35,742 nucleotides of DNA, from NCBI GenBank assembly GCA_016840035.1, contig JAEOTC010000240.1, forward strand, positions 1-35,742. Direction: 5' to 3'. The translations under genes were made by a program, and so were the position numbers. The notes beneath the pieces were generated by a model. The model worked only from the letters and a program-made list of their open reading frames with translations, was not told the DNA's origin and did no database searches. Numbering within the stretch: the first letter of the stretch is position 1; the number at the start of each line of letters is the position of its first letter. The DNA comes from Candidatus Hodarchaeota archaeon. GTDB lineage: Archaea; Asgardarchaeota; Heimdallarchaeia; Hodarchaeales; Hodarchaeaceae. Shown piece by piece: positions 18,038 to 31,527 of this stretch.

Positions 18038-19351
18038 ATGGAAATAAGTCAAAATTCAGGAATGAGAAACCGTTTTCTCCCTTTCAAGTATCCTGACTTC
18101 GGAAAACTCTTTTTAGGTCAATTTATTTCCAATATTGGTTCGCAATTTTCGTATATGGCACTCCAGTTCTTGATCTTTGATCTTACAGGGGATCTAGTTA
18201 TGATGGCTGTACTCGCAATTACCGAAGCTGTACCTATCATACTTATTGGTCCGTTCGCAGGAGTTCTCATTGATAGATATGATAGAAAGTATATCATGGC
18301 AATTGCAAATGGTTTCCAAGCAGTAGTAATTTTCTTAATTCCCCTCACGGCTATATATACTGGATCAACTCGTATTATAGCAATATTAGTTCTAGCTTTT
18401 CTGAATTCCGCATTTGCTCGATTCTTCTTTCCTGCAAGAGGAGCATCTATTCCAAGATTAATTGAGGATAAAGAGGATCTGTTTGGAGCGAACTCATTAA
18501 GTGCGGGGGCGTATCAAACATCCGCTTTAATTGGACCTATGTTGGCTGGAATAATAATAGGGATTTATGGTTATCAAATTCCCTTTATAATCGACAGCTT
18601 AACATTTATTTTCTCCTCTATTTGTATTTTGTCGATTTCGACCTCATTAAAGGTAACTTCACGATCTAAACAAAGTCCATTTCAGGATTTAGAGGAAGGT
18701 GCGAGGTTTATCAAGGGATTCTTACCCATCTTCTACCTTTTAATCATCTTTTCAGTTCTAATGTTTGCAGGTGGAGCGACCCTATTTCTAATAGTTCCTT
18801 TTCTAGAAATTGAATTTGGGTTAACATCTCGTGGCCCGAGAGAGTTTGTCTTTGGTTTATTTTCCGCATTATCAGCTACTGTAGGAATGCTGTTTGCAGT
18901 TTTTCTTTCAAGGAAAAAGCAATTACGAAGACCAATTACATTGATAACATACTCACTAGTTCTTGCTGGTATAATGCTCATTGGATTTGGCGCTTCAACT
19001 GCTCTTTGGATGCTAGCAATTGCGTGGATAGGTTTTGGGACAATAGAAGTCGCAGTAGGGATACCTTTACAAACAATTGCTCAAGAAACAGTCCCTGATG
19101 AACTTCGGGGAAAAGTATTTTCTTTCATCAATTTAGCAATTACTTTTTCCCAAATAATTGGGATGGGATTCGTTGGTCTATTAGCTGCCGGGCCTCTTGC
19201 ATTACGGGGGACTTTTACGGTAAGTGGTCTTTTCATGATCATTATTGCTTTTTTCGGATTCCTCTTCTTAAACCGAAAGGATCTAGAAGGTATCGCTACC
19301 CAAAAACGTGAGGAATTTCGTGCTAAACCACGAGAAGTTATGTCACAGTAG
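18038..19351 (+). CDS. MFS transporter (DHA3/macrolide-efflux-like)
   Basis: LGQFISNIG, motif A GVLIDRYDRK, VPDELRGKV and about 12 TM helices. Confidence 0.93.
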   Translation: MEISQNSGMRNRFLPFKYPDFGKLFLGQFISNIGSQFSYMALQFLIFDLTGDLVMMAVLAITEAVPIILIGPFAGVLIDRYDRKYIMAIANGFQAVVIFLIPLTAIYTGSTRIIAILVLAFLNSAFARFFFPARGASIPRLIEDKEDLFGANSLSAGAYQTSALIGPMLAGIIIGIYGYQIPFIIDSLTFIFSSICILSISTSLKVTSRSKQSPFQDLEEGARFIKGFLPIFYLLIIFSVLMFAGGATLFLIVPFLEIEFGLTSRGPREFVFGLFSALSATVGMLFAVFLSRKKQLRRPITLITYSLVLAGIMLIGFGASTALWMLAIAWIGFGTIEVAVGIPLQTIAQETVPDELRGKVFSFINLAITFSQIIGMGFVGLLAAGPLALRGTFTVSGLFMIIIAFFGFLFLNRKDLEGIATQKREEFRAKPREVMSQ

Positions 19352-20894
19352 TGGCATTTGTTAATTTAGCATATTCCTTGACTTTTGCTTCTTCACTTGT
19401 TCCTTGAAGGACGAGGACATACTCTATACATCCTCTAGCGCGTTCTCGACGCTGGGTCATATCATCCAGATTACTAGTAATATCTAAATGGATAACTACG
19501 TCTGCCTCCTCTAAATTCAACCCTCGACCACCAACTGGTGTAAATATTAAAACATTCACATCTTCGGTGCGAAATTGGTCTAAGATTATATGGCGAGATT
19601 CTTCTTTAGTCTTCCCAGAGAGATATTTGACTCCTGGATACTGCAAAGTTTCCAATATCATCTTTAATTGTTCCCCCAGAGCTAAATATCGAGTGAACAA
19701 GAGTACTTTGGCCCCACGAATTATGTGCTCGTGAATAATATTAATTGCTTTCTCAACTTTAGGATGAATTAAACCCCGAGTGGTGGTTTCTTCTGGTTTA
19801 TCATATCTTGGTAAATCAACTCTGTAAGATATGATTTCTGAACTAACCTCACGCAGAGATTGGAAGACTTCTTGGTTCTCATCCTTCTTCGTATAACGGA
19901 GATATTCTCCTGGAGTGCTTTCCAGTAACAATAACCGAGCATGAGTTAATTTGAAGAGTAACGCAAATGCATTGATAAGCTGAATGCGGTCTTCATTGTT
20001 TTCTACTTTGTGTTTACCTAATCTAATTGGATACGATCTCTGTTCTCCTCGTAAGCGGTCTAAAGCTCCCCCATAGGATAATTTAACAATTTCAAGTCTA
20101 CTCAAATTAGGATCAAGAATTTCTTGAATGGTACCAACAGGTTTTGTAAGTAAATTAGAGATAGTTTGATCGTTATGGACATAATCCTCTCTCACAATGG
20201 GGTTAATTTGTGTGATAGTCTCATAGGGGGATAGATCTAAACGAGACATTTGATGAGCATCTTCTCCAAGGACTTGTACGATGAATTTTGCTTTATGTTG
20301 ATCTCGCGTACCGGACATGGCAAGGATAGGAAAATTATTCTTTTTACGTACTTGAAATAATTCTTGGAAGTATTTGGACAGACGAAAACCTGACATAGAA
20401 CGAGCTAAGAGATCAGTCGCTTCATCTACAATACATAATGAAACATTGGCAAAGATGTCAACCTTGAGTCTTGATTTGATTTGGAACCGATCATTCATCA
20501 AAGTTTGAATTGGGGAAAAGATTACCTGAGATGCTTGATACATCTTCATCTTTTGAGATAGATTTAGCCCTTTTCCACCCGTTTGAGGATTGAAAAGATA
20601 GCCCAGCTGGTCAACAAAGCCGAATTTTTTACCCATTTCAACTGCTTGACGACAGCGTAAACCTGCTGCTTCACGAGCGGAAGTAAAGATAAATTGTTTT
20701 CCTGGTTCAGCCATCTTTAGCTTTAGTAGCACTAGAAGAGCAATAATAGTTTTTCCAGTTCCATAAGGGTAGTTTAACAAGATGGACTTAGAATCTTGAT
20801 GAAGGGAGAGAATTTCTTGTACAGCTTGTAATTGATAGTCTCGTTTGTCAATTGTCAAGCCTTGAAGTAATTTATCCGTTATCTCCAGAACCAT
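19338..20894 (-). CDS. SF2 DEAD/DEAH-box helicase, Hef/FANCM-like helicase core
   Basis: Q motif RDYQ, Walker A PYGTGKT, motif II VDEAT, III MSGT, HPK, IV LLFT, V VGGRGLNL and VI QRRERAR, with a helical insert between the RecA domains. Confidence 0.85.
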   Translation of the reverse strand: MVLEITDKLLQGLTIDKRDYQLQAVQEILSLHQDSKSILLNYPYGTGKTIIALLVLLKLKMAEPGKQFIFTSAREAAGLRCRQAVEMGKKFGFVDQLGYLFNPQTGGKGLNLSQKMKMYQASQVIFSPIQTLMNDRFQIKSRLKVDIFANVSLCIVDEATDLLARSMSGFRLSKYFQELFQVRKKNNFPILAMSGTRDQHKAKFIVQVLGEDAHQMSRLDLSPYETITQINPIVREDYVHNDQTISNLLTKPVGTIQEILDPNLSRLEIVKLSYGGALDRLRGEQRSYPIRLGKHKVENNEDRIQLINAFALLFKLTHARLLLLESTPGEYLRYTKKDENQEVFQSLREVSSEIISYRVDLPRYDKPEETTTRGLIHPKVEKAINIIHEHIIRGAKVLLFTRYLALGEQLKMILETLQYPGVKYLSGKTKEESRHIILDQFRTEDVNVLIFTPVGGRGLNLEEADVVIHLDITSNLDDMTQRRERARGCIEYVLVLQGTSEEAKVKEYAKLTNATTVT

Positions 20895-26223: not shown

Positions 26224-26853
26224 TTAACTTAATGCGTTTTTGACCAATTTTCCTTTTTCAGTAAGGAGAAAGAGCTTATTCTTTGTACTTCCTCTTGAAG
26301 TAACCAATCCTTCAGCAGTTAACTGTTTAAGGTAGCGTGATAAGAGACCACTGCTTCCTTTCTTATCTTCCTGCAGCTCTTTGTATTTGGTGGTTATTGC
26401 TTCTAGCTTTACTCCTTCCTCTGGAATTAAGAGTAATACTCGCTCCTCAGTTTTCGACAGTTTTTGATAAAGAACCATCTCCATTGGTTCTTTACGTTCC
26501 TTGTCAATAATATAAAATGATTTTATCTTTTCTTTCAGAATGGTCGCCGTACTATAGAACAATAATTGCCAACTGACCAACCCAGATGTAACATTTAGCA
26601 TAAGTTCATATTCTTTCGAGTGCAAATCATTAATTAAATTTTTTAAAAAGTCTACAATGTAGTATGAATCTCTTGGTTTTTCAATGATTTCTATTCGAAC
26701 TTCTATACCTTTAACCAGCTCTGTTATCTCATTTGCTTGCTCTAGATAATCTTCTGTAGTAATTAGAACTAATAAAGAGGTTGGATAACGAAATAATCCT
26801 AACTGGATCCATTCAGGGTTCCGACCCACTGTAGCAATCTGACAGATCTTCAT
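26224..26853 (-). CDS. CARF-domain + winged-HTH transcriptional regulator (Csa3/HFX_2341-like)
   Basis: N-terminal Rossmann strand IATVG, CARF motif MLNVTSG, then wHTH LSKTEERVL...LLSRYLKQLTAEGLV...LTEKGK. SD GAGGAG. Confidence 0.82.
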   Translation of the reverse strand: MKICQIATVGRNPEWIQLGLFRYPTSLLVLITTEDYLEQANEITELVKGIEVRIEIIEKPRDSYYIVDFLKNLINDLHSKEYELMLNVTSGLVSWQLLFYSTATILKEKIKSFYIIDKERKEPMEMVLYQKLSKTEERVLLLIPEEGVKLEAITTKYKELQEDKKGSSGLLSRYLKQLTAEGLVTSRGSTKNKLFLLTEKGKLVKNALS

Positions 26854-26999: not shown

Positions 27000-27659
27000 T
27001 TGAAAAGTAGTAAAAAAATAATCGGAACAGTTATTGGAATTGGAATACTAATAATCATCATTGGGGGATGCATGAAACCATCGGAGTGGCCAGCTCAGGT
27101 AACTCACAAATTCGACCTCCCATCAACAATAGATCCTGATCATGTGCAAATTTCAGAATTGAATGCTGAGATTGAAAAATCATGGGCCGGAGTTCGCAAA
27201 TATCACAAAGGAGATCAAATGATGGAAGATGAAATTGATTTTATCGGAAGAGAAATTAAAGAACTAATTGAATATTGCCCAGATTTGGAAAATCCTAACT
27301 ATCAAGCTTTTGAACACTTTCCAACCGTATCACAGGTTCTGGAAACCAAGAAAGATGATTGTGATGGTAGAGCAATTGTTGCTTGCTCATTATTAATTCA
27401 TCGTGGATATGACAGCTACGTGATAATGAATGAACGTCATGCTTGGGTAATTACCTATTTAAATGATGGAAGCTTCGTTGAAATTTTAAAAAATCCTATT
27501 CCTGACGATGATCACAGCTGGTTATTACAATGGAATAATAACACTGTAAAGATAAATTTCACCCATCCAGTACCTTTAGTAATTGGTGTGTTGGTCTTAT
27601 TGGGAATCACTTCGACACGAGTGTTTTTACTGAAGAAAAACAAGCCATCAAATGCTTGA
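27000..27659 (+). CDS. Membrane-anchored transglutaminase-like (papain-fold) cysteine enzyme
   Basis: N-terminal hydrophobic leader ending IGGC, catalytic-type DDCDGRAIVACSLL and HAWV, and a C-terminal TM helix followed by KKNK. Confidence 0.78.
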   Translation: MKSSKKIIGTVIGIGILIIIIGGCMKPSEWPAQVTHKFDLPSTIDPDHVQISELNAEIEKSWAGVRKYHKGDQMMEDEIDFIGREIKELIEYCPDLENPNYQAFEHFPTVSQVLETKKDDCDGRAIVACSLLIHRGYDSYVIMNERHAWVITYLNDGSFVEILKNPIPDDDHSWLLQWNNNTVKINFTHPVPLVIGVLVLLGITSTRVFLLKKNKPSNA

Positions 27660-27759
27660 GAATTTCACTAATTCCATACAAGGTTTTTTTAAGAAGATTT
27701 ATCCTTCTCAAAGAAACCCAATTTTTTTAAGCAAACCCTATTCCTAAGCACAAAAAATA

Positions 27760-30468
27760 ATGAAGGGGAATCGCAGAATGAAATCATTAGCAATATTGAG
27801 TCATAAAGGTGGAGTTGGGAAAACAAGTATTGCCGTGAATATTGCTGTTTATCTAGCATCAAAAGGGAAACGAGTCTGTCTTATTGATAATGACTTCCAT
27901 GGGCCGTCTATTTATACGTTCTTCAAACCAAATGTCACCTGGATAAATGATTATTTACTTGCTGAAGGGAAACTAGAGGATTGTTTGCAAGAATTCTCCA
28001 GTCAGCTGAATTTAGCTGGAAAGTTGTATATTGGATTTGCAGATCCATCTCATACCTCTATTCAAGAAGTATTGCAGATGGATAAAGATACGTCAATTGG
28101 GATGCTAAGAAAATATGTTAAACTAAAAAATGAACTTCTAAAACCTCCTTATGAGATTGAGTATCTGATAGTAGATTGTTCACCTGGAGCAGTATTTAGT
28201 ACTATTAACGTAATGGTCGCTACAGATTCCAGTCTCTTTATAATTAAATTAAGTAATGCGGATATCCTAGGGACATCACAGATGATATCAGCTTTGCATG
28301 AGGAAATGAAAAGCAGAACTTTAGTCTTGGCTAATTTTATCCCAGAAGATTTTGTGCAAAACACGGAAAAAACAGACGAGAGTCAGAACTTTATCGAGAA
28401 GATTTTCACCAAAGATATCGGGGATAAAGTAGTCGACTTTCTTGGTTGGATCCCTCAGGATCAAACATTGCTGAATTATGAATTCGAACAGGCATTAAAA
28501 ACAATAAGAGGACAGGAATCATCCAGAGTAATATTTTCTGTTGATCAACCTGAACATATATTCTCACAGACGATAATCCAATTATTACCAGTCTTATTCA
28601 ATGAACCAGAGGCACTTCCCTCCGTTTCTCAGGATTTACCAGAATTATTGGTGAAACAACGCAGAGCTTTTGTTGTAGGTGAACCCCAGGTGGGAAAAAC
28701 TGCTTTGTTTCATGCTCTTACCTCAGGCAGAGTGCCAGAAAAACTTCAAAGTACTGCAGGGATTGATCGCTATACAATCTGGGAAGCACAAGAAGGAAAT
28801 GTGATTACAGGTATCAATTGGTGGGATTTTGCGGGACAATATGCATATCGTGATACCCATAAGTTATTTTTGACAGAGGATACACTCTATATTCTAGTCC
28901 TAAACCTACGAGAGTCAATTGAGAAAAATCATGCACTATATTGGTTACAGAGTATTCGTGAAAAGGCTCCCAAAGCCCCGATTCTACCCATATTAACTCA
29001 TTATGATGAGGTGGGCGATAATGTTCTGGGATTAGCTGCTTCAGATGATTGGCAAGAATTAATGGAATATATGACCACATATAAGACTTTGGAACCAATT
29101 AAAGTTTCTAATACAGAAGGAAAGAATATTACCAAGGTAGAACAATTAATTAAGCGGTCGATGAATGAATATCAAGGAGTACAGATTCCGAAATTATATT
29201 CCAAACTTAAAGAATACATCCAATCCTGTGAAGAGCGTATATTCTTAACATTAGAGCAAGTTAGGAAGGATGTAAAGCAACTACCCATCGAGAATGACAT
29301 CCAACTAGAACTATCGGATAGTAAACTCAACGAAATCCTCCTACAACTTTCCCATCAAGGCCATTTTCATATTGTAGAATTACCTTCTTCTCCATCAATT
29401 GTAATTTTTGATGTTGATCGTGTGACTAAAGCATTCTCTTTAATAATAGATCAGGCAAAACCGTTGAAGGGATTTGTAGAGGAAGTTGATGTTCTTGACA
29501 TCTGTGCAGATTACTTTTCTCGCGGAGAAAGACGTGAAGCGGCCCATATTATTGCGGATTTAATGGTTAAAACCGATATGGCGTTACCGATACCTACCAG
29601 TAGTTCTACAGGGAGGATCATATCTTCTTGGTTAATTCCCCATGCATCAGAGATTCTTACAGAGAAAACAGCTCGCAAAAATTATCCTTCCATATTTGTC
29701 CGTCCTGAAGAAGAGATAGGGAAAAGTTTAGCCTCATTCAACTTCGTACTGAATACCTTTGATGAAATTATTGAAGCCCGTGTTTTAGGACACCTTTTCA
29801 ATTATCTTCCGTATTCTGAAAAGAACCAAGTTTGGCGAGAACGATCAGAAGACAGTGAAAAAACATCCTTGCATGCATTTCTGTACGAGGATGATCGACC
29901 AATTGTACATTTCCACTCAGATTCATTACGACGAGGGAAAATACGACTGAAAGTAGTCATTACTGATGATATCTTAGAGAAGGGACTATTAGCATCCATC
30001 ATCTATGCGTTAAGTAAATATAAGATCTCATTCGAGATAGAAGAGACTATTTTCATCAAAACGCAGAAATTCAAGAATAAAGATGAAAATCTGCTAGACC
30101 GAATCGCACAACTAACGAATATTCCAGAAGAGTATATCCAGACAATCGAACAAGCTATCAAAATATCCTCTTCAGCTCCCTCAAGTGCCATCGTTACAGC
30201 GGTAACCGCGTTAGAAGGACTATTTGTGACCTATTATACAAAGAAGATTGCTGAACCTGAAGCAACAACGAAGTTTTGGGAAATTCTGAAAGCCCTTTAT
30301 GATGCAAATTATGTCCCACGAACAGTCAAAATCTGGGCGGATACTGTACGATTACATCGCAATAATTGTGCTCATAATATTAACCCAGTGAATACAAATG
30401 ACGTTAATATTGTGTTAGAAGAAATTTTATACGTTTTAGAGTGGTATAACACAGTTTCTACAAGTTAA
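27760..30468 (+). CDS. MinD/ParA ATPase - Roc GTPase - COR - HEPN(DUF4145-like) fusion protein
   Basis: HKGGVGKT, IDND and VDCSPG (MinD/ParA). GEPQVGKT, STAGI, WDFAGQ..Y..TH.LFL and THYD (Roc). QIP.LY, L.HQG, IFDV..V and WLIP (COR-like). ALEG...RLHRNNCAH (HEPN Rx4H). The start is probably ATG 27778. Confidence 0.85.
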   Translation: MKGNRRMKSLAILSHKGGVGKTSIAVNIAVYLASKGKRVCLIDNDFHGPSIYTFFKPNVTWINDYLLAEGKLEDCLQEFSSQLNLAGKLYIGFADPSHTSIQEVLQMDKDTSIGMLRKYVKLKNELLKPPYEIEYLIVDCSPGAVFSTINVMVATDSSLFIIKLSNADILGTSQMISALHEEMKSRTLVLANFIPEDFVQNTEKTDESQNFIEKIFTKDIGDKVVDFLGWIPQDQTLLNYEFEQALKTIRGQESSRVIFSVDQPEHIFSQTIIQLLPVLFNEPEALPSVSQDLPELLVKQRRAFVVGEPQVGKTALFHALTSGRVPEKLQSTAGIDRYTIWEAQEGNVITGINWWDFAGQYAYRDTHKLFLTEDTLYILVLNLRESIEKNHALYWLQSIREKAPKAPILPILTHYDEVGDNVLGLAASDDWQELMEYMTTYKTLEPIKVSNTEGKNITKVEQLIKRSMNEYQGVQIPKLYSKLKEYIQSCEERIFLTLEQVRKDVKQLPIENDIQLELSDSKLNEILLQLSHQGHFHIVELPSSPSIVIFDVDRVTKAFSLIIDQAKPLKGFVEEVDVLDICADYFSRGERREAAHIIADLMVKTDMALPIPTSSSTGRIISSWLIPHASEILTEKTARKNYPSIFVRPEEEIGKSLASFNFVLNTFDEIIEARVLGHLFNYLPYSEKNQVWRERSEDSEKTSLHAFLYEDDRPIVHFHSDSLRRGKIRLKVVITDDILEKGLLASIIYALSKYKISFEIEETIFIKTQKFKNKDENLLDRIAQLTNIPEEYIQTIEQAIKISSSAPSSAIVTAVTALEGLFVTYYTKKIAEPEATTKFWEILKALYDANYVPRTVKIWADTVRLHRNNCAHNINPVNTNDVNIVLEEILYVLEWYNTVSTS

Positions 30469-31079
30469 GGATGTCCACTGTAGTATTTCTGGAATGCAGA
30501 CACCATTTCATTAAAAGGGAGATCAGAATAAACACCACGATCACTAAGATAATCTATGAATGGTCTACCTTTGGTATCTTTTGATTGAAACGTAGCATCA
30601 GTTGAACCATCAAAAGTACATACAGGAAAATCGTGTTTTTGACATAATTCGGTTTCAAAAGAGGGAGTTAGCTTGTACCAGTGATTATTTAGAGATACTT
30701 CGGCATACCCATGGAAATAGAAGATATTAGTACCCATTAATTTAACTAAATGATCGGGGCTCCTATGGTTGATGATATCCGCGAAATGTAATCTTGAAGG
30801 GAATCCACCTGCACGGTAGAGGGCTACAAGTAATATTGATTTAGGTATGCAGAATCCCTTCCCTCGCTGTAAAGTGACACTCGCTTTAAAATCATCAGGG
30901 CTTGAATACAGAGACATGTCAATTTTATATTTAATTTGATCACGTACAAAATTAAAGATAGAAATACTTAGATCGTTCACATTAACAGTTTCTGTTTTAA
31001 GATCAGTCACCTTTTGTAGAATAGCAGATGAATCACTATCAATGAAGGACGTTGGGGTCAGGTATTCACTGTTTGCCAT
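30465..31079 (-). CDS. Transglutaminase-like domain protein (cytoplasmic)
   Basis: YL.PT.FIDSD, IFNFVRDQIKY, GKGFCIPKSILLVALYRAGGFPSRL and FHGYAEV...W.KLTP. The start is reassigned to ATG 31079. Confidence 0.9.
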   Translation of the reverse strand: MANSEYLTPTSFIDSDSSAILQKVTDLKTETVNVNDLSISIFNFVRDQIKYKIDMSLYSSPDDFKASVTLQRGKGFCIPKSILLVALYRAGGFPSRLHFADIINHRSPDHLVKLMGTNIFYFHGYAEVSLNNHWYKLTPSFETELCQKHDFPVCTFDGSTDATFQSKDTKGRPFIDYLSDRGVYSDLPFNEMVSAFQKYYSGHP

Positions 31080-31149
31080 TATACAAAAGAATTTGAAGTT
31101 AGAAATTAAATAGTTTACACTCTTGATCAAATTATGGGAAGTATCAAGG

Positions 31150-31527
31150 ATGAATGCAGACCAAAGTTTAGAAGAACAAAATAAGATAAAACAGGCAATC
31201 ATGAATTATTATCACGAGGGTCATGTGAAAGAAGATCCTAAGCTATATGAACAGATTTTACATGAGAAATGGAAGTTTTTTCTACATGGTGAAGATGGAC
31301 TGCTCCGAGTAGTAGACAAAAAGGAATATTATTCATGGTATAATCCTGATGAACCCGATCTGTCTTTAAAATGGAAAACAAAATTTAAGTACATAGATGT
31401 GACAGATTCGATAGGTTCAGCTAAAATCGTGATTGAAAATCAGAATATTCGTTATACCGATTACTTCAATCTCATGAAAATTGAAGGGATCTGGTGGATT
31501 GTTCACAAAATATCTATTGCTAGTTGA
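31150..31527 (+). CDS. NTF2-like / lumazine-binding-type protein
   Basis: IKQAIMNYY, IDVTDSIGSAK and YTDYFNLMKIEGIWWIVHK. The start is placed at ATG 31150. Confidence 0.85.
   Translation: MNADQSLEEQNKIKQAIMNYYHEGHVKEDPKLYEQILHEKWKFFLHGEDGLLRVVDKKEYYSWYNPDEPDLSLKWKTKFKYIDVTDSIGSAKIVIENQNIRYTDYFNLMKIEGIWWIVHKISIAS

Follow-up and report, generated by a model that had tools for sequence, protein, structure and literature searches.

What does an archaeon do with a protein that carries a ParA/MinD-type ATPase, a Roc GTPase, a COR region and a HEPN domain on one and the same chain? The question is raised by a gene on contig JAEOTC010000240.1, which was recovered from a Hodarchaeales archaeon and which at its full length of 35,742 nucleotides (nt) is referred to here as the window. 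The Hodarchaeales are commonly seen as the closest archaeal relatives of eukaryotes. An earlier note on this DNA had proposed the four modules and had stated that no such architecture was known to it from the literature. We found the product to be a lineage-specific member of the Roco family, with three nucleotide- or dimer-dependent modules per chain. The parts of the gene are as follows, with positions given in the window and residues counted from the first codon of the frame.

27760..30468, forward strand: coding sequence of the ParA-Roc-COR-HEPN protein, 902 codons plus stop (open reading frame (ORF) listing and translation).
27778..28608, forward strand: ParA/MinD-type ATPase domain, residues 7-283 (Pfam, and alignment with standalone Asgard ParA).
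27802..27825, forward strand: deviant Walker A motif HKGGVGKT, residues 15-22 (Lys16 as the signature lysine, Lys21/Thr22); it does not vary among the relatives, whether fused or standalone.
28609..28650, forward strand: variable linker between ParA and Roc, residues 284-297; standalone ParAs stop at LFxE, whereas the fused ones go on, with poor conservation.
28651..29169, forward strand: Roc GTPase domain, residues 298-470 (Pfam Roc, E 1.1e-19 at residues 304-416).
29170..29643, forward strand: COR-A, residues 471-628; a winged-helix pair that ends in a conserved (L/F)IPHA motif (here LIPHA).
29659..30069, forward strand: COR-B, residues 634-770; an alpha/beta domain, residues 170-306 of the AlphaFold2 (AF2) model.
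30115..30465, forward strand: HEPN domain of the DUF4145 family, residues 786-902 (Pfam and fold).
30349..30375, forward strand: predicted catalytic helix R864-L-H-R867-N868-N-C-A-H872, with RNNCAH at 30358-30375.

A composition of this kind could be an artefact, either an assembly chimera of a ParA gene and a Roc-COR-HEPN gene or a decaying pseudogene, and the nature of the source, a metagenome-assembled genome (MAG) of 293 contigs that is 87% complete with 4% contamination, speaks for taking that option seriously. The frame itself is uninterrupted, as the earlier note had claimed: 902 codons are stop-free from 27760 to 30468 on the forward strand. The true start is probably Met7 at 27778, because the orthologues and the database copy of the window protein, which has 896 residues, open at MKSL (MKSL or MKTI in the full-length orthologues). 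In a word-indexed search of 5.8 billion proteins we recovered eight orthologues with 54-63% identity, from NCBI MAGs labelled Hodarchaeota, JGI metagenomes and Logan assemblies; three of these were called at full length and have a Pfam architecture identical to that of the window protein. The fusion is encoded in at least five other assemblies, including a 226-kb contig, and the same continuous frame is present in assemblies and samples that are independent of each other. Within the family alignment the conservation is continuous across the junction of ParA and Roc. Given the independent assemblies, the conserved junction and the single clade that is formed by the fused ParA domains (see below), the sequences establish that the fusion is genuine and had a single origin. 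The artefact, including the junction chimera of which the earlier note had warned, is effectively refuted and retains next to no probability.

One orthologue deviates from the others. P0009 (L002 5674-8295, on the 226-kb contig) was called 109 residues short; the ParA N-terminus with KGGVGKT is encoded upstream, where an ATG is lacking. The protein also misses 28 Roc residues directly after G3/switch II, and its gene lies in a different context, with an FtsX-like permease and a NUDIX protein. Decay of this copy, or a shift in its function, is possible.

The distribution of the fusion is narrow and patchy. In a set of 400 Asgard genomes, matches to COR-HEPN were confined to the genus of the window, where they occurred in 4 of the 22 species (0 in the 378 other genomes). 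The four genomes are that of the window, G072, G057 and G062, the copies in the latter two being cut by contig ends, and several genomes of the same genus that are 93-99% complete lack the gene. A search for the same architecture across Asgard genomes, as the earlier note had advised, thus did turn it up in relatives, in one Hodarchaeales genus only and not Asgard-wide.

The N-terminal module is clearly that of a ParA/MinD ATPase. Pfam matches cover residues 7-237 (AAA_31, E 7e-17; ParA, E 1.5e-15; CbiA, E 1.1e-14), and the sequence matches of the domain in the PDB are ParA, Soj, MinD and Mrp. All the motifs that had been read from the translation are there: HKGGVGKT, the switch aspartates D43 and D45, and the Walker B residue D139 in DCSPG, each of them conserved with the standalone relatives. 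The ATPase of the fusion is apparently catalytically competent. The NF047398 model scored 44.6 bits on the fusion protein, against a cut-off of 90 bits. A C-terminal amphipathic membrane-targeting helix of the MinD/FlhG type was not found, as the domain continues directly into the linker and Roc, and neither was a MinE- or ParB-like gene found among the neighbours of the fusion gene.

When residues 1-295 were searched alone, hundreds of standalone proteins of around 280 residues were recovered; identity reached 63%, over 94% of the query, and the labels were Hodarchaeales, Heimdallarchaeota, Promethearchaeota, Thorarchaeota, Odinarchaeota and Kariarchaeaceae. The fused ParA aligns collinearly with these Asgard proteins, starting at residue one and continuing up to LFxE at the C-terminus, and in a maximum-likelihood tree the five fused domains that were included form one clade (SH-aLRT 99) nested among the standalone ones. 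Phylogenetically, the fused ParA is shown to descend from a pan-Asgard standalone ParA that was duplicated and fused once. The genome of the window has retained a standalone ParA as well (281 residues, 54% identical to the fused domain; G000:C123, L014 1516-2361). It is followed by the gene of a 213-residue protein (L014 2358-2999), with which it shares overlapping stop and start codons (translational coupling), and whose N-terminus looks like longin/roadblock, with a winged helix at the C-terminus. The pair of ParA and winged helix-turn-helix (wHTH) protein recurs in two other Asgard genomes (L011, L012), there after HerA-Mre11-Rad50-Hrq1-like helicase genes; a longin-like wHTH adaptor is the usual partner of the pan-Asgard standalone ParA. 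A relationship of the 213-residue partner, or of the protein upstream of that ParA, to the fusion or to its transglutaminase-like neighbour was considered and rejected.

The origin of the domain brings up a housekeeping role, in which the ParA part would position the protein on the nucleoid or another surface, as a spatial regulator or RNA-processing factor, while the HEPN part carries out routine local maturation or turnover of RNA. The close paralogy to a pan-Asgard protein (up to 63% identity) fits such a role, as do the HerA-Mre11-Rad50-helicase genes that adjoin the standalone ParA gene in two genomes, the ordinary neighbourhood and native GC content of the fusion gene, and the conservation of the protein over its whole length. 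Nevertheless, the patchy distribution is hard to reconcile with housekeeping: of the Asgard genomes searched, only those from 4 of the 22 species in the genus have the fusion, and genomes of the same genus that are at least 93% complete do without it. The 28-residue deletion within Roc in one orthologue points in the same direction. We consider a housekeeping role distinctly unlikely.

The second module was likewise recognized correctly in the earlier note: the Pfam Roc match is accompanied by G1 GEPQVGKT at 28678-28701, as claimed, and by G2 TAG, G3 WDFAGQ, G4 THYD and G5 VSN, all invariant or nearly so in the family (GEPxxGKT, TAGID, WWDxAGQ, LTHxD and KVSN being the invariant elements of the alignment). 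The G4 element is of the THxD type, as in LRRK1/2 and the prokaryotic Rocos, and the best sequence and fold matches are to Rocos too. The best solved relatives of Roc by sequence are Roco proteins only, i.e. Roco2 of Methanosarcina barkeri, LRRK1, LRRK2 and the Roco protein of Chlorobium tepidum. Closer Roc-COR relatives or split forms did not appear in the protein-collection search, which gave the family itself and distant bacterial Rocos with leucine-rich repeats (LRRs).

The COR region demanded more than one line of evidence. The Pfam models of COR-A and COR-B matched neither the protein nor the genome of the window, and by sequence the COR of the fusion is too divergent for them. BLASTP against an LRR-Roc-COR-TIR protein of Nostoc aligned residues 298-627 to its residues 343-655 (E 5e-17), a stretch that spans the Pfam COR-A of the latter, and an hhalign comparison of the family with seven bacterial Rocos yielded a probability of 99.4% (E 4e-21) over residues 296-607, thus Roc and COR-A; the sequence profiles did not extend into COR-B. 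For the remainder we used an AF2 model of residues 465-902, based on a nine-sequence alignment (predicted local distance difference test (pLDDT) 81.5, predicted template modelling score 0.69). The top Foldseek matches of this model in the PDB were LRRK1, the COR and RocCOR structures of C. tepidum Roco, and LRRK2; the isolated COR domain 3dpt was matched at a template modelling (TM) score of 0.56 by target. VIA-align gave 3dpu_B at Z 13.4 (249 residues, model residues 8-306) and 3dpt_B at Z 13.0 (261 residues), followed by M. barkeri RocCORdC (4wnr) at Z 11.2, for COR-A only (model residues 1-166), and LRRK1 at Z 11.1. A fold search of the ESM Atlas led to bacterial Roc-COR-A-COR-B clusters with TM scores of 0.54-0.59. 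The middle region, called COR-like in the earlier note, therefore does model as COR, and both halves are present in the model, COR-B being recognized by fold alone.

No LRR was found at the N-terminus of the fusion protein with Pfam; the ParA/MinD domain stands there instead. In a wider sense canonical Rocos are scarce in this group, as the Pfam COR-A model matched one of the 400 Asgard genomes and none in the genus of the window. The sole match (L023, G138:C689; E 1.4e-39) is a 759-residue frame; its contig is 2.6 kb long and its MAG 85% complete, so that horizontal transfer or contamination is possible in that case.

The C-terminal module is a HEPN domain, as had been proposed. The Pfam DUF4145 model (PF13643) matches residues 798-887 with 28.0 bits, above its cut-off of 23.1 (31.7 bits in a six-frame search of the genome). 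That DUF4145 belongs to the HEPN superfamily is established, and the family has for the most part retained the Rx4-6H motif (Anantharaman et al. 2013, PMC3710099). The best single VIA-align match of the AF2 model is the HEPN protein AF_0298 (2hsb; Z 13.5, root-mean-square deviation 2.6, 114 of 126 residues, model residues 322-438), after which come the HepT RNase toxins (Z 10-11) and RnlA (Z 9). Modelled alone on a 30-sequence alignment, the domain reached a pLDDT of 96.1. In a Foldseek search with this model the E values were 0.046 or higher throughout, yet nearly all of the top 36 rows were HEPN proteins, with one de novo design among them. The fold matches include HepT, RnlA and Csm6', and the core is the four-helix up-down arrangement. 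A profile of the same alignment recovered from the PDB sequences only repeat-driven matches to CagY and a marginal DUF4145 entry (9y9c, E 0.83).

Within the predicted catalytic helix RLHRNNCAH is invariant in nine of nine family members and constitutes an R-N-x3-H motif, which, like the four-helix core, the protein has in common with the DUF4145 HEPN domains and the HepT and RnlA toxins, where it lies on the equivalent helix. The RNNCAH part is located at precisely the position given earlier. In the 30-sequence DUF4145 alignment R864, N868 and H872 are invariant. R867 is kept in the fusion family and its nearest relatives, and many distant DUF4145 members have a Gly there (GNVGxH). This replacement would fit a HEPN domain that serves for dimerisation or for binding of nucleotides or RNA, comparable to those of sacsin or the KNTase_C type, in which case the protein would be a scaffold or switch with ParA multimerisation as its output. 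In a survey of ParA-based immunity, several systems were indeed proposed to have ParA multimerisation as their primary effector, and for one archaeal system with ParA the proposal was that HEPN domains which are inactive bind RNA (Li, Burroughs, Aravind, bioRxiv 10.64898/2026.10.19.760177, Oct 2026). Against a non-RNase function stand the full R-N-x3-H that the family and its nearest relatives retain, the invariance of the three residues in the wider alignment and the presence of active RNase toxins, HepT and RnlA, among the closest folds. We regard it as very unlikely. A homodimer prediction for COR-B and HEPN (residues 620-902, two copies) returned a score of 0.00 against a mark of 0.42, a result that counts neither way on binding. 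An MNT or other antitoxin gene was absent among the neighbours of the fusion.

The company that related HEPN domains keep is informative about their use. A profile of residues 620-902 retrieved 93 proteins from 1.84 billion cluster representatives. COR-B was covered only in the family, in some fragments and in one relative of 558 residues, the other matches being limited to the HEPN part. The proteins matched in the HEPN part alone contain LRR, nSTAND1-TPR-FGS, TIR-AAA_35, kinase, WD40 or STAS modules, and the combinations with the first four are typical conflict architectures. The 558-residue relative (P0027, from a metagenome contig in ENA) is 31% identical, starts near G5 of Roc, continues through COR-A, COR-B and HEPN into an 87-residue tail, and retains the motif as RVHRNKCAH. 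It has only around 100 nt upstream, and is therefore a COR-HEPN protein that naturally lacks ParA and most of Roc. Outside the family, the most closely related HEPN domains belong to LRR-HEPN proteins of 389 residues from the same genus (L007 748-1917 in G066, L008 in G076, and P0028), which were found in species that lack the fusion.

How might such a protein work? ParA/MinD ATPases form ATP-dependent sandwich dimers by means of the signature lysine, and then bind DNA, membrane or partner proteins. In HEPN RNases two protomers together build the active site. Roco proteins dimerise via COR-B and pass through a cycle of monomer and dimer that follows the nucleotide state (PMC6337361). By analogy with the bacterial LRR-Roc-COR-effector (AP-GTPase) conflict proteins, Roc-COR would be the switch of the fusion protein and HEPN its effector. 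The ParA domain, at the position of the LRR sensor, might tether the protein to DNA or a partner through its ATP sandwich dimer, or report on these. HEPN follows COR-B immediately, which suggests an RNase that is assembled upon dimerisation, with its timing controlled by the two nucleoside triphosphatases (NTPases): pairing of COR-B, and of ParA, would bring two HEPN domains together into a composite RNase site, at a moment set by the GTP and ATP cycles. The output would be cleavage of RNA, leading to growth arrest or to restriction of a mobile element or virus. Gating of the HEPN site by dimerisation is plausible and fits the behaviour of the modules elsewhere. On these grounds we favour, at somewhat better than even probability, a role in conflict or stress for the protein, as one of the Roco/AP-GTPase type with ParA in place of the LRR sensor and with HEPN as an RNase effector. 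The accessory character of the gene, seen in its single copy, its patchy presence and its varying downstream neighbours, counts in favour of this reading, as do the conflict-type architectures in which related HEPN domains occur and the frequent linkage to a CARF-wHTH regulator (see below).

A second source of functional clues is the neighbourhood of the gene, of which the adjacent features are these.

26224..26853, reverse strand: Csa3-like CARF-wHTH regulator of 209 residues, divergent from the fusion gene (PADLOC CARF3, E 1.1e-13, full length).
27000..27659, forward strand: membrane protein of 219 residues with a transglutaminase-like Cys-His core, directly upstream of the fusion gene (weak Pfam match to the CEP76 peptidase-like model).
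30465-31202, reverse strand: transglutaminase-like protein (Pfam Transglut_core, 7e-12), convergent with the fusion gene, whose stop it overlaps by 4 nt.

The CARF-wHTH protein has HFX_2341_N and Csa3_N as its nearest ESM Atlas clusters and a 67% identical orthologue in L001. It was rejected as a relative of the longin-like wHTH protein that accompanies the standalone ParA (BLASTP nil; hhalign probability 0.5%). The upstream membrane protein is single-pass, with an N-terminal and a C-terminal hydrophobic segment, and its orthologues in L001 and G059 are 47% and 37% identical, respectively. The pair lies upstream of the fusion in six of the eight loci (window, L001/G072, G062, G057, P0004 and P0006), and the divergent CARF-wHTH regulator may control transcription of the fusion gene there. 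Within the genus the CARF gene occurs in single copy, in G059 and in each of the four genomes that have the fusion, where the two genes share a contig.

This arrangement could be that of an obligatory multi-gene system, composed of the CARF-wHTH protein, the membrane transglutaminase-like protein, the Roco-HEPN protein and the second transglutaminase-like protein, in which the trigger is given by the other parts. The direct adjacency in six loci and the linkage in four of four genomes are in its favour. At odds with it, two fusions (L002, L010) occur without the pair and G059 has the pair without the fusion, which also weighs against the favoured conflict reading; the downstream transglutaminase-like gene is found in the window only and is not conserved in the other fusion loci, whose downstream neighbours differ; and T-rich TATA-like motifs in the 100-nt gap ahead of the fusion gene suggest that the latter has its own promoter. 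The genomes are moreover close kin, so that the linkage of CARF and fusion may partly be plain synteny. An obligatory system of this kind is in our judgement unlikely.

The gap in question (27660-27759) holds two TTTTTTTAAG copies. T-rich as they are, these copies are possibly an oligo-T terminator of the upstream gene and a TATA-like box of the fusion gene. At the corresponding place in G059, beside the transglutaminase-like gene and on the opposite strand, lies an ORF of 745 residues without a Pfam match (L021 6396-8633, forward strand). A 900-residue ORF beside the CARF gene of the same genome was considered as a relative of the fusion and rejected as unrelated. Elsewhere in the window, a 518-residue protein (19338-20894, reverse strand) has a C-terminal helicase region with partial PADLOC matches to DpdE, BrxH and ZorD (E 1e-11 to 1e-7); it is probably a generic superfamily 2 helicase.

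Several observations weigh against a role in conflict. The locus is no defence island: apart from the CARF-wHTH regulator no defence protein adjoining the fusion was detected by PADLOC, and the other neighbours are metabolic or unknown. Neither Cas10 nor Cas1, which might feed the CARF regulator, was found in the 87%-complete genome. The GC content of the fusion gene equals that of its flanks (0.36-0.38 versus 0.33-0.39), hence the sign of a mobile element is absent. The gene is present in a single copy in its own genome, whereas the Roco conflict proteins of bacteria are multi-paralogue. Finally, conservation in the family is good from end to end, at 54-63% identity, and rapid evolution is not obvious. 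A more specific version of the conflict or stress reading is put forward as tentative, at well under even probability: an undescribed single-chain immune or stress sensor of Hodarchaeales, in which a ParA that senses DNA or a partner and an LRRK2-type Roc-COR would form a two-input (ATP, GTP) gate for assembly of the HEPN RNase, possibly under an orphan CARF sensor.

Previous comparative work allows the protein to be placed. Bacterial LRR-Roc-COR proteins were described with at least 24 alternative effectors behind COR and were predicted to be switches directed against invaders (Kaur, Burroughs, Iyer, Aravind, eLife 2021, PMC8195603). With these AP-GTPase-COR proteins, as with C. tepidum Roco and M. 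barkeri Roco2, the fusion shares the Roc-COR-A-COR-B core and the variable effector C-terminal to COR. It differs from them in that LRR or other sensor repeats are missing and a complete ParA/MinD occupies the N-terminal sensor position, and in being archaeal, single-copy and off a defence island. The prokaryotic Rocos on record by 2019 all have an LRR at the N-terminus as a typical feature (PMC6337361). The text of PMC8195603 does not name HEPN as an effector, and the strings 'COR+HEPN' and 'MinD' occur zero times among the ~2,700 AP-GTPase+COR entries of its architecture tables.

It has been argued that ParA was recruited to immunity repeatedly, with HEPN effectors or grafted onto STAND NTPases (bioRxiv 10.64898/2026.10.19.760177). 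The combination of ParA with a HEPN effector is common to these systems and the fusion, a thematic resemblance. In contrast to them the second NTPase is here Roc-COR and not a STAND ATPase, and the Walker A reads KGGVGKT as opposed to the Arg variant highlighted for the ConB2 branch. The standalone paralogue with its longin-like wHTH protein resembles the archaeal ParA-wHTH system with profilin/longin-like domains of that study, the main text of which mentions neither a ParA-Roc-COR fusion nor Asgard archaea. Compared to the DUF4145 HEPN domains of PMC3710099, the present one is fused behind Roc-COR and not to restriction-modification, helicase or STAND modules. Mollusc proteins, known from an automatically annotated ESM Atlas cluster, share the pairing of Roc-COR with a domain of the HEPN superfamily; they are eukaryotic, their HEPN is of the DZIP3 type (PF18738) and they have no ParA, all of this at the level of cluster annotation. 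A full-text literature search yielded no publication on ParA-Roc-COR-HEPN or on Roco proteins in Asgard archaea, in line with what the earlier note had stated. Considering that Roc-COR with varied effectors and immune ParA with HEPN have been published, and that mollusc Roc-COR proteins with a different HEPN family exist, the novelty is one of combination and not of kind.

The significance of the fusion rests on prediction, for a small family whose hosts are uncultured or barely cultured. If the prediction is true, the protein would for the first time couple a SIMIBI ATPase directly to a Roco switch, and would offer a tractable minimal model of signalling from Roc-COR to a C-terminal catalytic domain. 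For LRRK2, the kinase of Parkinson's disease, the central question still is how Roc-COR communicates its nucleotide state to an enzyme C-terminal to it, and Roc-COR signalling has mainly been studied in prokaryotic Rocos without enzymatic output. The fusion would be a compact test bed of around 900 residues, because its predicted output, RNA cleavage, is easily assayed and the dimerisation switch of ParA is well understood. For the Asgard archaea, where canonical Rocos occur in one of 400 genomes, it would extend to these organisms both the Roc-COR principle with swappable effectors and the recruitment of ParA to immunity, with a housekeeping-type ParA that was captured in a single fusion event.

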